Shown here: one piece after another, positions 1 to 8,573 of the stretch | Position numbering within the stretch: position 1 is the stretch's first letter | Layout of the letters: each line of letters begins with the position of its first letter | NCBI GenBank assembly: GCA_014728035.1 | Contig: WJMJ01000036.1 | Span: forward strand, 1 to 12,688 | Direction of reading: 5' to 3' | Source of the DNA: Promethearchaeota archaeon | GTDB taxonomy: Archaea > Asgardarchaeota > Thorarchaeia > Thorarchaeales > Thorarchaeaceae | Length of the DNA: 12,688 bases | Notes under the pieces: model-generated | Databases searched by the model: none | The model's input: the letters and a program-made list of their open reading frames with translations, nothing else | What the model was told of the DNA's origin: nothing | Made by a program: the position numbers and the translations under genes

Positions 1-463
1 GTCTAAGGGACCGCAGCTGAGTACATCTACTGAGGGGCGATAGGTCTAGGTTCTGGAGTTTATCCATCCTCTCAAATTCTAAGGACCGCAGTTGTGATAG
101 AGATGAGAGAGGAAACAGATCCAGAGTCTCGAGTCTATCCCCGGATAGTGATAGTGACTGTAGCTGTTGGCATTCACGAAGAGGAGAAAGATCCAGGGCC
201 TGGAGATTACGCATAAGAAATAGTGATAGTGATTGCAGCTGTTGGCATTCACGAAGAGGAGAAAGATTCAGAATCTGGAGTTCATCCAACCTCTCAAATT
301 CTAAGGACTGCAGCTGAGTACATCTACTGAGGGGCGACAGGTCTAGGTTCTGGAGTTTATCCATCCTCTCAAGTGTTAAGAACTGCAGCTGTGCGCATCC
401 ACTAAGAGGAGACAAATCCAGGGTCTGGAGGTTTTTCATCGTTCCTAGTGTCAGGGACTGCAA
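1..463 (-). repeat. Coding tandem repeat of 75-bp units (one of 72 bp) underlying the LRRs
   Basis: 13-75 matches 310-372 at 62/63 nt; 145-192 matches 220-267 at 46/48; 68-91 matches 290-313 at 23/24. All offsets (297, 75, 222) are multiples of 3. Confidence 0.93.
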
Positions 464-604
464 ATTCGTACATGCTGTCAGATTACCGAGATCGATACTT
501 ACTGCATCAGGTTTAATGATCTCTATCTCCGTGACCTCATTATCATAACTGAGAGTGCGTTCTTCATCCTCAGTGTCTGTGTATCGGATAGTAATCTCGC
601 CCAT
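1..604 (-). CDS. Leucine-rich repeat protein, 25-aa LRRs; runs off the left edge (3' partial); not in the supplied ORF track
   Basis: Manual translation from ATG at 604 (GGGAG just upstream on the minus strand) gives 201 codons with no stop: MGEITIRYTDTEDEERTLSYDNEVTEIEIIKPDAVSIDLGNLTACTN / LQSLTLGTMKNLQTLDLSPLSGCAQ / LQFLTLERMDKLQNLDLSPLSRCTQ / LQSLEFERLDELQILNLSPLRECQQ / LQSLSLFLMRNLQALDLSPLRECQQ / LQSLSLSGDRLETLDLFPLSSLSQ / LRSLEFERMDKLQNLDLSPLSRCTQ / LRSLR... The LxxLxLxxxxxLxxLDLSPL pattern is clear, and no signal peptide is visible. Confidence 0.95.
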   Translation of the reverse strand, partial: MGEITIRYTDTEDEERTLSYDNEVTEIEIIKPDAVSIDLGNLTACTNLQSLTLGTMKNLQTLDLSPLSGCAQLQFLTLERMDKLQNLDLSPLSRCTQLQSLEFERLDELQILNLSPLRECQQLQSLSLFLMRNLQALDLSPLRECQQLQSLSLSGDRLETLDLFPLSSLSQLRSLEFERMDKLQNLDLSPLSRCTQLRSLR

Positions 605-992
605 GGCTAACTCCCGCTTTACAAGACTCTCTTGTTATTAATAATATTGTGCGGAAGGAGTTAGAGCCCCAACTGCTTCCAGAACTCGATATTTTTTGCA
701 AGTATGAAGATATACTCTTGGAAACGTTTGTAGATAGGTCCGGGATGCCAGATGAATATTTCATCAGTATAGATAATAGAATTTCTAATTTTTCTCTTAG
801 TAACTGGAATCAGTACTATCGAAAGAAGTGAATTCAACTCATCCGAGATAACTCACTCTCAGCATTTGAATAATTCAGATAATAAGAAAATGTTATCTTC
901 AAATCATTTAGTTCACTGTATATGATAACAGACCCAGAATTCTCACGATGGATTTATTACTTCTCATTCATTTTTTAATTATTGAATGAAGG

Positions 993-3900
993 ATGTTTCC
1001 CATGGACAAGAAGGTCTTATTTCTATCTGTCTTTGCTTTGCTTCTTTTGGCAACTGTTCCAACAGCCGAAGAGACACACAACTCTGTAATTTCAAGCAGT
1101 AACACGGATTTTTTTGCAAAAGCATACACCGAAAGGAATCCTATCGTTATTACCAGTGATGCTGATTTTTCCTCGCAGGGTTTTCCAGGAAATGGATCCG
1201 AGTCAAATCCCTACCTCCTAGAAGGATATAACATAACTAGTGATGATGTATGTATCGACATCAGTGGAACATCTGCTCATTACAAAATCAATGGATGTCT
1301 AATTTCAGCTCCAGTTTTCTCTAGCAATCAAGGAATTTTAATTGATTCGGCACCCAATGGTACTGTAGAAAGCTGTATTATCGAAAAACACCAGTATGGT
1401 CTTCGAATCGCATCTTCTGAGGACTGTGTTGTAAAAAGTAATACTGTCCGCGATAACTCTGAAGGTCTCAGTTTCTATGATTGCGACAACTTCCTGATAT
1501 CAAACAACACAGCATTCAATGATGAAATTTCGTTATATCTGACAAGCAGTTATCATTGTGTTATTAGTAACAACACATTAAAAGATTCTACTAAAGGGGG
1601 TTACATTAGTGGAGTGTATCTCAATGTAATTGACAATATTGTGAAGAATAATTCTGAATATGGTCTCTTCACTGCTAGTGAATACAGTACTGTAGCAGAA
1701 AACGAGATAATGCAAAATCCTACAGGTATCTATTTCTATTCAGGTCAAGGGCTGAATATCTCCTTCAATCAGATATATGATAACACAGAGTATGGGTTTT
1801 ACGGTTACGAATACGATTTGAGAGATAGCATTTTAGCGAACAATACTTTTTCGGATAATAAATATGGAGTATATTTGAGCAGGGTTATAGTATTTGCTAA
1901 TCCCCCGGAAAACTTCACCTTTGTAAATAATACATTGATCAATAATGGTCTTTACTTGGGTAATAGAGCTGATTCAAATTGGATAACTGATGTTACTGGG
2001 ACAACCGTGAATGAAAAACCTCTAGGATATTTCACTGACCTGAATGATTCAATTATTGATGGAACTCAATATGGACAAGTGATTCTTATCAACTGTTCCT
2101 ACACAGATGTCATAGGGGGAATATTTGATAATGTCACACTAGGTGTGACTGCTATTTCCTCCAACAATTGTACTTTCATGGATATCAGTTCTTTAAATAA
2201 TTCAGCAGTTGGGTTTAGACTAATAAATTCCGATGACTGCCATATAATAAACAATACAGCATCTAACAATCTCAATTATGGATTTATTCTAGACAATTCA
2301 CATAATTGTAGTCTAACTAATAACACCGCACTAGATAATTCACAATCAGGATTCTACATTAGTAGTTCGCATTACTTGGAAATATACAACACTTCTGCAG
2401 TCGATAATTCAAACCATGGGTTCTATTTAGACAACTCAGATTTCTGCAATCTGACAAGAAATATTGCTCAATCTAATAATGAAACTGGTTTCTATGAATA
2501 CCGATGTTCTGTTCCTGAATATCATGAAAACGAAGCTAATGAAAATGGATATGATGGATTCAACTTCGAAGATACTGATAATGGAACTCTAGTTAATAAT
2601 ATTGCAAAGAGCAATTCTCGAAATGGATACAGTTTCACGAGTTCAGATACATATACTCTAACAAACAATACTGCAGAGAGTAATGCCAATAATGGATTTT
2701 TTGTGCGTGATTCATATTATCACTATTTAGATTTCAATGATGGATGTGCAAATTTCATTGGGTTCAATTTAGATTCTTCAGTAAACTGTTCGCTTCAGAA
2801 TAATACCGCAATATCCAATTCATTACATGGATTCAATCTGCATTCTTCTGATAATAGTACCTTCATTAAGAATAATGCAACGCAGAATATTTTGATTGGT
2901 ATCTCCCTGACCAATTCAAGCTCTTGTACAATGTATCAGAACACCGTTATTCACAATAATATTGGGATACAAGTAGATATTGACTCTGAGAGTAATCTCT
3001 TCTATTTGAATCGGTTTGGATATAATTCACTTTTCAATGGACTCGATGAAAGCTATTCAACAGATTGGGACAACACAACTCAAGGAAATTGCTGGTCAGA
3101 TTATGATGGTTCGGGACATTATCTGGTAGATGGATCTCCAGGGAATATCGATAATCATCCTTGTATTCTTGATCTATATGTTCCAACGCTGAATCAACCT
3201 CAAGATATTAGCTACGAGTTGGGTGAAACAGGTAATTCTATACTATGGATAGCATATGACCTGCATTTGGATTCTTATGTTGTTCATAGAAACAATACCC
3301 TGATTGATTCCAACACTACCGATGGGACCAACATCACAATAAATGTAGACGGCCTAGATATTGGAAGCTATAACTATACCATAACTGTGAATGATACAAT
3401 GGGCAAGGTATCGGTTGACACAGTGTTTGTCGAGGTTTTTGATACTATCCCTCCTGAACTAGATCATCCTGAGGATATAGATTACGAACTGGGTTCAACT
3501 GATAATGTATTAACTTGGAACCTCACAGATTTTAGACCTGACTCGTATGAGTTATACCAAAATGGTAGTCTTATTGAAGAAGGTTTCTGGTCCGGTGGTG
3601 ATATCCAATTTATCATAGACGGACTTCCTGTAGGTACCTATATCTTCACGCTTGTAGCGAATGATACTACTGGAAACAATGCCAGTGATTCTGTAATTGT
3701 ATCAGTTGTAGATACTATATCTCCTAACCTCGATTCATCATCAGATATCCAATACGAACTAGGCTCAATGGAAAATTCAATTACTTGGACTGTATCTGAT
3801 TTAGATCCGTTCTCATATGAGGTATATGTCGATGGTAGCCTTATGGAGAACTCTTCCTGGGACGGCAGTCAGATTGACTATAATGTCGATGGTTTTGCAG

Positions 3901-4922: not shown

Positions 4923-6536
4923 CTATAATTTCGATTGAAATAGTTTCTCTCGTAGTCTTGAATCCCTGACTAATTTTAGGATATACCTTTGCAAGCTAGT
5001 AGAAATGTGTTCAGGATAGGGGACTCTTCCTGTTTCGTGGACTGTGATTGTTCCTCCCAATTTTTCAATCTCAAATCGAATTCTGTCAAAATCCTTCATC
5101 GTTACGAATTGACCTGTTCCCAAAGCAGAACAGATCTGGAATCCCCAAGCAGTACAGATCAGGGGTCCTAGGTTTATCTTTCCCCCATCAGTTTTTTTCA
5201 CTTTGATATGTTTTATCTCCTTCCCTCGTAGTCTAAGAATTGTTGGGATAATTGCTGCGATTTCAGTTAGAGCCAATTCATCGATATCTGCAAGTATAGT
5301 TGTTCGTTCAGATTTGATTTGCTTTGAATATAGTGAAAATACTTGGTGTTGAACTTCTGAAAGATTATCACAAGTAAGCAACTCTTCTAAATCCTGAATT
5401 TCAATATCCAAAATACCAATACCCGGGATATCATAGTTCCTTGTCATATTATTTGTTAGAAAACTGACCTTCCATGAACATGGTTCATAGTCTTTTAGAA
5501 TTTCGACTAACTTTCTGATTGTAGTAATGTTGTATAGTCCGAGTATTTTATCATAATGTGAGATATGCCTATTCCAATGTGGGTATTTCTTGAAAATAGA
5601 TTCTTCACTCAGAATGGTAGATGCATAGCTGATATCAATGCTATCTATAGGGATATCCAGCAAGGGTAGCAAATCCACCCTTCTAAGACGTGTGTTTTCT
5701 GAGATTTCAATATCATTTAATTTGGAGCAAAATGAGAGTGGACTAAGGTCTATCTTGCGTAATTTTGTATTTCGGATTAATCTGAACTTCTTAAGTTGCG
5801 TTAAGGTAGCAAGGGATTTGAGGTCAATTGTTTCTAACATTCTATTATAGGATATTTGCATCTCCTCAAGAGACTCTTCCAATCCTTCCAGATTCAAATC
5901 AAAATCTTGTAATCTATCATTGCGGTATACTACGAGTTTACGTAATCTAAATGCAGATAGAAAGGGAAACAATACTAGACTGGTAATTCTCCAGTTTTGG
6001 CTGATTCTTAATTCCTGAAGATTATCCAATATCTTGAGAGCTGACAAGTCTAAATCATGAGTATTACCTCCAAGTACTAGTGAAGTAAGCTGAATGCATC
6101 TAGCAATGTCCTTCAGACTCTGCAACTTGATGTCTTCATTTATCCATACTTCAAATTCTCTAAGACTCTTACAATCTGATAATCTCCGTAGATCTAATTC
6201 TTTAAGACTTGCTAAGTTTCGTATTTGAATTGAATGAAGCTTGGGCAGTGCTGACAAAGGCTTCAGGTCCAATTTCTGAATCTGGTCATTCCCTACTATT
6301 GTAAGAGTCCGAAGGTGTGAACATGAAGAAATCGGACTTAAATCTAGTTCCGTTAGAATTTTATTATTTATGATTTGAATTTTTTCCAGCTGTGAAAATG
6401 ATGATAGTGTCGAAAGATCTATCTTAGTCGCATACGGGATTTGAATCTTAATTTCAATTGCATCAATATCATAGGTCTTGATGGATTCTTTTCCATCCCA
6501 ATGCAATATAGGAATTTCAACTTGGAGCATGACCAA
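4923..6536 (-). CDS. Leucine-rich repeat protein (about 10 LRRs of 23-25 aa) with an uncharacterised ~230-aa C-terminal domain
   Basis: Repeats such as LEKIQIINNKILTELDLSPISSCSH and LKKFRLIRNTKLRKIDLSPLSFCSK. The N-terminal cap resembles that of the 1-604 protein. No signal peptide or TM helix. True start may be the ATG at 6530 rather than the TTG at 6536. Confidence 0.92.
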   Translation of the reverse strand: MVMLQVEIPILHWDGKESIKTYDIDAIEIKIQIPYATKIDLSTLSSFSQLEKIQIINNKILTELDLSPISSCSHLRTLTIVGNDQIQKLDLKPLSALPKLHSIQIRNLASLKELDLRRLSDCKSLREFEVWINEDIKLQSLKDIARCIQLTSLVLGGNTHDLDLSALKILDNLQELRISQNWRITSLVLFPFLSAFRLRKLVVYRNDRLQDFDLNLEGLEESLEEMQISYNRMLETIDLKSLATLTQLKKFRLIRNTKLRKIDLSPLSFCSKLNDIEISENTRLRRVDLLPLLDIPIDSIDISYASTILSEESIFKKYPHWNRHISHYDKILGLYNITTIRKLVEILKDYEPCSWKVSFLTNNMTRNYDIPGIGILDIEIQDLEELLTCDNLSEVQHQVFSLYSKQIKSERTTILADIDELALTEIAAIIPTILRLRGKEIKHIKVKKTDGGKINLGPLICTAWGFQICSALGTGQFVTMKDFDRIRFEIEKLGGTITVHETGRVPYPEHISTSLQRYILKLVRDSRLREKLFQSKL

Positions 6537-7679: not shown

Positions 7680-8573
7680 TTGAATAGGACTCGATCAAAT
7701 CGCATGATTGTTTTACTCTTTCTACTAGCGAATTTAGTAGTAATTCCAATGCTAGCATCTGTTTCGATAAATCCTACCCTAAAACAAAATGCGGATTCAG
7801 ACCAAATTTATGCAGCAAATCCCGTTGATGAGATTAATCTTCCAATTTGGGATGAAGAACCCACAAATCAAACAATACAGTTCACTCAAAGTTTTAGATA
7901 TGACTTGAACGCTACAATTCCGGGAGGAGGAAGTGTATGGTATTACATGCGAGATTGGGTTCACTTTGATATTAGTGAATGGACTGGGATTATCAGGGAC
8001 AACAATAGAGAAGGTCCTTATCCTTATCTCTCAGCGGGAGTATATCCCTTAGTGGTTTATGCGTATGATATTGTTGTTTATGAGGCAATTTACAAATTGA
8101 TATACATTCATGTTGTTGAATACGATGCACCAATCATTGAAGGCGACAACCCAGATAGAACATTCATAGAAGGAAATGTTAATGCAACTCTGAGATGGAA
8201 TGTAAGTGAGCCAAATTGGGATAAACTTAGGTTATATTGCAATGATGAAGTTGTGGGATTCTATGATTATGAATGGGTCGAGGCCAATATATCGATAGAA
8301 TATGAAGTACCAGATTTAGATCCAGGTTTGTACGTGTATAGACTTGAAGCTACAGACTCTGTTGGCAATTCCGCTGAAGACTATGTTGCAATTACTGTGA
8401 GTACATTAAGATTTACACCAACAGTAACTAATCAACCACCATTTTCAGTCACTAGTACAACTACAACTTCAAATGACACTAATGTGATGCACGGATTGAC
8501 CATTTTCATACTTGTAGCTTCATTCATGGGATTAGCAATAATAATCATAGTAACCTATCATAAGATAAGATGA
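7680..8573 (+). CDS. Secreted, membrane-anchored protein with two Ig/cadherin-like beta-sandwich domains
   Basis: Start revised from 7491 to TTG 7680, with GGTGA at 7670-7674 (alternative ATG 7704). This gives the signal peptide MNRTRSNRMIVLLFLLANLVVIPMLAS. Domain 2 (APIIEGDNPDRTFIEGNVNATLRW...LDPGLYVYRLEATDSVGNSAEDYVAITV) matches the Ig repeats of 993-4676. Thr-rich linker, TM helix, HKIR tail. Confidence 0.85.
   Translation: MNRTRSNRMIVLLFLLANLVVIPMLASVSINPTLKQNADSDQIYAANPVDEINLPIWDEEPTNQTIQFTQSFRYDLNATIPGGGSVWYYMRDWVHFDISEWTGIIRDNNREGPYPYLSAGVYPLVVYAYDIVVYEAIYKLIYIHVVEYDAPIIEGDNPDRTFIEGNVNATLRWNVSEPNWDKLRLYCNDEVVGFYDYEWVEANISIEYEVPDLDPGLYVYRLEATDSVGNSAEDYVAITVSTLRFTPTVTNQPPFSVTSTTTTSNDTNVMHGLTIFILVASFMGLAIIIIVTYHKIR

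Follow-up and report, generated by a model that had tools for sequence, protein, structure and literature searches.

The LRR gene that opens a Thorarchaeota contig probably carries the marks of ordinary recombination within its own tandem array, that is, of concerted evolution in the gene of a cytoplasmic LRR protein, with neither cassettes nor dedicated machinery (a probability of about 0.7). The stretch of DNA that was analysed, called the window from here on, is the whole of contig C171 (12,688 nt) of a 4.33-Mb MAG in 173 contigs. Two tracts of nearly identical DNA are shared between repeat units of this gene; they are real and well supported, they look like ordinary concerted evolution, and there is no sign of a programmed receptor system that shuffles cassettes. 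The gene would represent the 5′ part of a member of a large Thorarchaeota family composed of a short N-terminal cap, an array of units of 24-25 residues ('LxxLDLSPLxxCxxLxxLxLxxxxx') and, where the paralogue is complete, a family-specific C-terminal domain of ~250 residues. We infer recombination as the mechanism: the 75-nt units would have exchanged sequence recently by homologous recombination within the tandem array, and short non-reciprocal gene-conversion tracts, template switching or unequal exchange are the candidate routes. In one case ~63 nt would have been copied over a distance of four units (U1 end/U2 to U5 end/U6), and in the other ~48 nt between the neighbours U3 and U4. Concerted evolution of this type would be sporadic and would raise the likeness of the units as much as it recombines them.

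The gene and its repeat units

The repeats that the initial annotation had read at positions 1-463 are real. That first reading could not have shown that the minus strand encodes the gene and that the contig stops within it at base 1, or that an indel sets bases 1-12 apart from their partner. The ATG is located at 604-602 and the frame remains open up to the contig end at base 1. Because contig C171 stops inside unit U6, the 3′ part of the gene and the C-terminus of its product are missing from the assembly. An A/T-rich TATA-like box (635-648), read by eye, precedes the ATG by 31-44 nt. The visible part of the gene is organised as follows:

2-604, minus strand: 5′ part of the LRR gene, first 201 codons (P0001), from the ORF and its translation
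506-604, minus strand: N-terminal cap, residues 1-33 (MGEITIRY...), from translation, tblastn and hydropathy
431-505, minus strand: unit U0, residues 34-58, the most divergent, with 43-52% DNA identity to the other units
356-430, minus strand: unit U1, residues 59-83, whose final codons (ERMDK) are part of tract a
281-355, minus strand: unit U2, residues 84-108, the partner of U6, with 89% DNA identity over the available 57 nt
206-280, minus strand: unit U3, residues 109-133, the tract b partner of U4
134-205, minus strand: unit U4, residues 134-157, 24 residues long, one codon shorter
59-133, minus strand: unit U5, residues 158-182, whose second half LRSLEFERMDK resembles the second half of U2 and then the end of U1
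2-58, minus strand: unit U6, residues 183-201, truncated at the contig end and differing from U2 and U5 by a 1-nt indel near base 9

The period of 75 nt was confirmed by two repeat finders. The 201-residue product belongs to the Pfam LRR clan, as it combines seven units of 24-25 residues with two models above their cut-offs, LRR_EndoS (33.0 bits, cut-off 27.9) and LRR_5 (28.7 bits, cut-off 27.7), and its nearest named homologues come from Thorarchaeota and Sifarchaeia. According to the unit alignment and its identity matrix, DNA identity between units is typically 45-77%; amino acid identity has a mean of 58% and ranges from 40 to 79%. The cap is acidic and of the same type as in the other LRR paralogues of the genome, where ~35 residues stand directly before units of the LDLSPLxxC type. 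In the paralogues on C120, C84, C141, C94, C121 and C103, the tblastn alignments begin at query residues 1-4. Neither the cap nor the rest of the visible 201 residues contains a signal peptide, and there is no membrane helix in them either (highest Kyte-Doolittle 19-residue mean, 0.76). This agrees with the cytoplasmic location that had been proposed for the protein, which is probably cytoplasmic.

Near-identical tracts within the array

The regions of the array in which DNA identity exceeds that of the surrounding units are the following:

13-75: tract a, copy 1, 62/63 identical to 310-372 at an offset of 297 nt
310-372: tract a, copy 2, the partner of 13-75
145-192: tract b, copy 1, 46/48 identical to 220-267 in neighbouring units
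220-267: tract b, copy 2, the partner of 145-192
68-91: SLEFER patch, 23/24 identical to 290-313, a weak third match that underlay the claim of a chimeric sixth repeat

The three counts had been given in the initial annotation and are exact. With a typical unit identity of 45-77%, the two long patches (62/63 and 46/48) are not a product of chance. To assess significance, the mismatches of each unit pair were re-dealt over the columns, weighted by the variability of each column in the other pairs, in 20,000 simulations. Clustering of mismatches as clean as that observed occurred with p = 5e-5 for U3/U4, which is the floor of 20,000 simulations, with p = 0.0017 for U2/U6 and with p = 0.0026 for U2/U5. 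When the columns were simply shuffled and the longest matching run was scored, a cruder test, the values were marginal (p = 0.04 and 0.11), because pairs with high overall identity keep long runs after shuffling. The two long patches are thus far beyond chance.

The length of the tracts bears on how they arose. At 63 and 48 nt, both are shorter than a 75-nt unit and bounded on both sides, and the 48-nt patch lies, as had been claimed, between unrelated flanks (1/10 positions identical on the left and about half on the right). Since a simple one-unit duplication would leave 75 nt of identity, the copying of parts of units is favoured over simple whole-unit duplication, as the initial annotation had argued. 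A variant of duplication nevertheless has to be weighed, in which the patches are the edges of whole- or multi-unit duplications (a four-unit block of 297 nt or a tandem U5b-U6a run) whose other parts were later overwritten. This is unlikely, even if several features of the contig end fit it: tract a runs towards the contig end, and its offset falls exactly one codon short of four units; the sequence at 2-16 reappears at 78-91 (14/14 bar one extra G; offset 75-76 nt), as if a further U5b-type unit began there; the break at base 1 is the effect expected of an exact repeat of at least 141 nt; and the closest relative of the gene shows a clean duplication of a block of three units. However, tract a is bounded on its outer side as well, by three mismatches and an indel in bases 1-12 relative to the U2 partner, and tract b ends after 48 nt in unrelated flanks in neighbouring units, short of the 75 nt that a one-unit duplication would leave.

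Two further details of the first reading fared less well. The sixth repeat had been described as a chimera of two parents, and although the match counts behind this are correct, the chimera itself is weak: the second parent is represented by four informative sites in 9 nt, in the SLEF codons, and the corresponding recombination triplet (U5b-U6a / U1b-U2a / U2b-U3a) reached p = 0.003 uncorrected among 283 triplets tested and was not significant after correction. The micro-homology that had been placed at 68-75 as the joint of this chimera is CCTCTCAA, found at 68, 290 and 365, and corresponds to the conserved x-E-R codons of three units.

The assembly and the contig end

The gene is located at a contig end, a near-identical 5′ copy of it on contig C148 also ends at a contig end, the last 12 bases contain a 1-nt indel, and the bin has an estimated contamination of 8.5% and is ~1 Mb larger than its relatives. 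These circumstances could suggest that the mosaic is an artefact, originated either by a chimeric path through the repeats or by the merging of near-identical copies or strains. Such an origin is highly improbable in view of how the assembly was built. A survey of contig ends in this genome found 108 overlaps with a length of exactly 141 nt, which indicates a de Bruijn assembly that was finished at k=141. In the LRR gene itself, the three longest exact repeats measure 34, 31 and 28 nt, and therefore each mosaic junction, together with its flanks, is contained within single 141-mers derived from reads. Moreover, the frame is open for 201 codons, and inter-contig matches of at least 80% identity and at least 300 nt add up to only ~44 kb of the 4.33 Mb, so that no close second strain has been co-binned.

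The very tip of the contig deserves separate mention. Relative to their partner at 298-309, bases 1-12 contain three mismatches and a 1-nt indel. The sequence GGG at 7-9 corresponds to GG in the partners 304-305 and 83-84, which means one extra G at the contig tip, and with this extra G the last codons read LRSLR where LxSLEF is expected. This reflects either a genuine frameshift or divergence, or a mistake at the contig tip, and the last dozen bases need caution.

A continuation of the gene was sought in the rest of the assembly. No other contig has even a 21-mer in common with the first bases of the window. The start of contig C115 was considered as the missing 3′ end and rejected, as it is a near-twin of a gene on C28 and not of the LRR gene of the window: C115:1-329 starts in the tail of the C-terminal domain of the family and is ~90% (by eye) like the end of the LRR gene at C28:30375-32093. 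The pair is a second recently duplicated gene of the LRR family broken at a contig end. Apart from this, ~20 contig ends (e.g. C8, C10, C16, C22, C36, C37 and C38, and further C41, C46, C57, C65, C69, C71, C83, C89, C91, C94, C138, C141 and C163) share a terminal sequence of ~85-141 nt in both orientations, which suggests that the assembly breaks at a dispersed multi-copy element such as an insertion sequence.

Search for donor sequences

In lampreys and hagfish, VLR genes are put together in somatic cells from donor cassettes, hundreds of which flank the gene, and a cytidine deaminase takes part. The array studied here resembles a VLR in that segments have been copied from other LRR units through short homologies, and cassette shuffling of the lamprey kind had been proposed for it. 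The assembly gives no ground for this proposal, as no donor-like DNA is present anywhere in it. A blastn comparison (word size 11) of positions 1-700 with the 4.33-Mb assembly (173 contigs), the search for donor cassettes or paralogous units that had been recommended, returned matches only within the gene itself and in its 5′ twin on C148, and thus no copies of units outside the gene. Unlike in VLRs, the window gene has no donor cassettes in the assembly and the copying took place between the units of the expressed gene itself.

The comparison was extended to the LRR paralogues of the genome, a set of 33 reading frames with the same type of LRR unit collected from the assembly. The 32 other frames displayed no unit-to-unit DNA similarity over at least 40 nt, two of them having a single match of 77% only, and the best DNA patch between LRR paralogues reached 85% over 40 nt. 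The second LRR gene of the window (4923-6536, 537 residues) is also made of old, diverged units. The resulting proportion of one frame with recent exchange in 33 has to be read with an ascertainment caveat, since near-identical arrays break short-read assemblies and the window gene is itself at a break. The lack of donors, together with the 32 of 33 frames without exchange, leads to the conclusion that there is no cassette store and that the LRR family as a whole is not being shuffled. Nor is a diversity-generating retroelement indicated, as no reverse transcriptase is encoded among the genes of the window and the three differences within the patches (T/C, C/T and A/C) are not adenine-specific.

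A probable paralogous island on contig C148

The only DNA outside the window that resembles the start of the gene concerns its 5′ end:

521-701: first 28 codons plus 97 nt upstream, with a second copy at C148 5543-5723, 177/181 identical

All four differences between the two copies are upstream of the ATG. Adjoining the C148 copy there are 59 nt that are 95% identical to 1036-1094 of the window, the signal-peptide region of a NosD-like gene; this relic lies on C148 (5484-5723) beside a truncated LRR frame. C148 (5.7 kb) has no counterpart of window positions 702-1035. At its other end, C148 1-253 is 81% identical to 7833-8084 of the window, and its middle part has a gene content of its own, with three further LRR frames and a prolyl-oligopeptidase-like gene among others. 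C148 is more likely a paralogous LRR island than a second strain. The second strain was rejected on the basis of the ~44 kb of genome-wide matches at 80% identity or more and of the unequal ends (98/95% versus 81%). A junction of a k=127 graph, conceived from the 128 nt of identical overlap between C148 and the window, was rejected too: the survey of contig ends gives k=141, and hence the end of C148 is no simple junction with C171. The 5′ end of the LRR gene has therefore probably been copied recently between islands. This supports recombination of LRR loci here in general, with C148 providing no donor of repeat units.

Relatives of the gene

LRR genes of this kind are numerous in the family, with 6-25 matches in each of 18/18 family genomes and 53 in the present one. 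Among 30 related genomes, there is no orthologue of the LRR gene of the window above 54% identity. No near-identical copy appeared in the public collections searched either: a peptide-pattern scan of JGI metagenome contigs found matches at 27-29% identity only, a scan of genome contigs found only distant bacterial LRRs, and the best match in a collection of 5.8 billion proteins (longer and similar lengths) was 44% identical. The closest relative, G007:C10, comes from another genus, is 54% identical and has 18 units of 72 nt; it, too, is cut by a contig end. In this gene, units 2 and 5 and units 3 and 6 are 100% identical and unit 8 is 99% identical to units 3 and 6; a block of three units has been duplicated, and a few unit types are re-used in varied order. 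One more locus (L010) with an array similar at the DNA level was found among the 11 related loci sampled. The identical units of G007:C10, considered together with the copy on C148, lead to the conclusion that LRR arrays in this group are remodelled now and then. G007:C10 (1-2675) is also peculiar in its C-terminal domain, which carries an insert of ~75 residues with a helix-hairpin-helix (Pfam HHH_5, E = 5e-10) that is absent from the other members.

The product and its possible function

Complete paralogues carry a C-terminal domain of ~250 residues (QIxxGGTTI ... LRxxE ... PLxxTAYGF). Twelve members were aligned, including the 537-residue paralogue of the window (domain at 4926-5660, minus strand). 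The AlphaFold2 model of the domain is confident (pLDDT 88.5, pTM 0.83). The domain corresponds to no Pfam family and has no sequence match in PDB; Foldseek found nothing against PDB at E <= 0.001, the best VIA-align Z was 5.5 over 61 residues, which is at noise level, and ESM Atlas comparisons gave TM <= 0.30. As regards signalling, no NTPase, TIR or other signalling domain occurs in the visible 201 residues or in the complete 537-residue paralogue, and no NB-ARC/NACHT or Roc-COR was found in these two sequences or in the C-terminal part of G007:C10.

An antiviral role had been considered possible for the protein. PADLOC and the genomic context lend it no support, with no match for the LRR protein of the window or for the 537-residue paralogue and no defence genes among the neighbours, which encode a NosD/beta-helix surface protein, response regulators, a KaiC-like ATPase and a TPR protein. 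On the G007:C10 protein, PADLOC gave one weak match to PglW (E = 0.002), located inside the helix-hairpin-helix insert. A cytoplasmic binding or scaffold role is a reasonable suggestion for the product.

Selection and direction of change

The initial annotation had described the gene as actively diversifying. What the tracts reveal points in another direction: the three differences within the patches are all synonymous (the single one in tract a is CTA/CTG, both Leu, and the other two are in tract b), and 32/33 LRR frames are without exchange. In two neighbouring units, tract b, which encodes LSPLRECQQLQSLSL, covers the beta-strand (LQSLSL) as well as the convex part and renders them identical. 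Differences that are only synonymous, together with beta-strands that are identical in two units, imply that the visible events homogenise the array. Copying may still yield new combinations of unit halves. In a rough Nei-Gojobori estimate from unit pairs that are not independent, pN/pS was 0.97 in the variable segment versus 0.39 in the framework for the window gene, and 1.32 versus 0.32 for G007:C10. This contrast is the usual pattern of LRRs and is compatible with relaxed or diversifying selection, and a value of about 1 in the variable segment leaves room for selection for diversity.

These observations have to be confronted with a broader idea, namely that selection keeps a receptor repertoire variable, on the model of the highly internally conserved (HIC) repeats of fungal NLRs and of the resistance-gene clusters of plants. 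Units would be shuffled frequently within and between paralogues, the concave face would be under positive selection, new binding specificities would result, and the extreme form would be VLR-like. The mosaic tracts are there, the promoter and first 28 codons have a second, 98%-identical copy on the paralogous island C148, the LRR genes are clustered as well as numerous (the 53 matches here and the 6-25 in each of the 18 family genomes), the G007:C10 array of 18 units is built from few unit types in varied order, and the pN/pS values (0.97-1.32 in the variable segment versus 0.32-0.39 in the framework, for non-independent pairs) go in the same direction. Against this, no donor-like units exist in the assembly, the units of 32/33 LRR frames are old and lack similarity at the DNA level, the patch differences are synonymous only and tract b has rendered two beta-strands identical. 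Similarly, the mean unit identity of 58% at the amino acid level is far under the 85% over 100 residues that defines HIC repeats (PMC4986451), and neither the visible part of the window protein nor the complete paralogue has a signalling domain or a PADLOC match. Taken together, a selected variable repertoire is improbable. A related proposal appears rather unlikely, namely that Thorarchaeota maintain a set of cytoplasmic LRR receptors (N-cap, LRR array and a C-terminal domain of no recognisable fold) in which recombination, both inside genes and from one paralogous island to another, remodels arrays and promoters again and again under selection for new binding faces. If it were true, the LRR repertoire would be an archaeal counterpart of how immune receptors evolve in plants and fungi, and this in the closest lineage to eukaryotes. 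Concerted evolution by ordinary recombination in the array is the preferred explanation.

Comparison with known systems

Concerted evolution of tandem LRR units is familiar from the resistance-gene clusters of plants, such as Cf-4/Cf-9, RPP5 and Xa21. The Thorarchaeota genes resemble these clusters in that LRR paralogues are clustered, a conserved framework is combined with variable positions on the beta-strand face, and short exchange tracts occur both between repeat units and between paralogues. Unlike the plant clusters, the host is an archaeon, the proteins have no NB-ARC, kinase or membrane anchor, recent exchange is found in one of the 33 paralogues only, and there is no sign of a defence role.

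A second system, to which the resemblance is looser, is provided by the HIC repeats of fungal NLRs (WD40, ANK and TPR repeats, as in the het-d/het-e/nwd genes of Podospora), which are defined by at least 85% identity over at least 100 residues (Dyrka et al. 2014, PMC4986451). HIC arrays show marked polymorphism of repeat number, and LRRs are reported to be absent from fungal NLRs (PMC4986451); alleles of fungal HIC repeat genes obtained with long reads have been described (PMC12222747). Shuffling within the gene and between members of the family, a variable binding face and breaks in the assembly are points in common with the genes studied here. In contrast, the mean unit identity of the window gene (58%) lies below the HIC threshold and its repeat is of the LRR type.

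Asgard archaea have an expanded set of LRR (alpha-beta solenoid) proteins whose abundance has been published (bioRxiv 10.64898/2026.10.28.762692), and LRR is among the promiscuous repeat domains (10.1101/2020.10.19.343400). The window gene belongs to this expansion, as it has an LRR-only annotation and comes from a Thorarchaeota genome with dozens of paralogues. The papers on Asgard LRRs cover abundance and not the evolution of the arrays, to which the exchange of units described here is a small addition. Whether these proteins are static scaffolds or fast-changing binding surfaces bears on the function of Asgard LRR proteins. The locus shows that units are exchanged in at least some arrays, and the start of a gene has probably been copied between paralogous islands. 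A signal that is present in a single one of 33 paralogues and is ordinary in appearance says little about function by itself. A practical lesson is that such arrays break short-read assemblies, so that the number and order of units in MAGs under-represent the most dynamic members.

Other coding repeats in the genome

Similarity between units at the DNA level was also observed in repeats of other types. A coding repeat of 25 residues, BspA/DUF285-like, at C49:2514-3506 shows DNA-level similarity between its units. A 26-residue repeat (IKQDPxWAYxYAxxVIKGRWPEAE) has DNA-similar units at C131:160-726, C118:5024-5434, C74:1337-2329 and C158:224-513; these IKQDP...GRWPEAE arrays are often near contig starts, and the C74 copy contains stops. 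DNA-level similarity between units is therefore not special to LRRs in this genome, and occasional expansion or homogenisation of coding repeats is common here and not specific to the LRR gene of the window.
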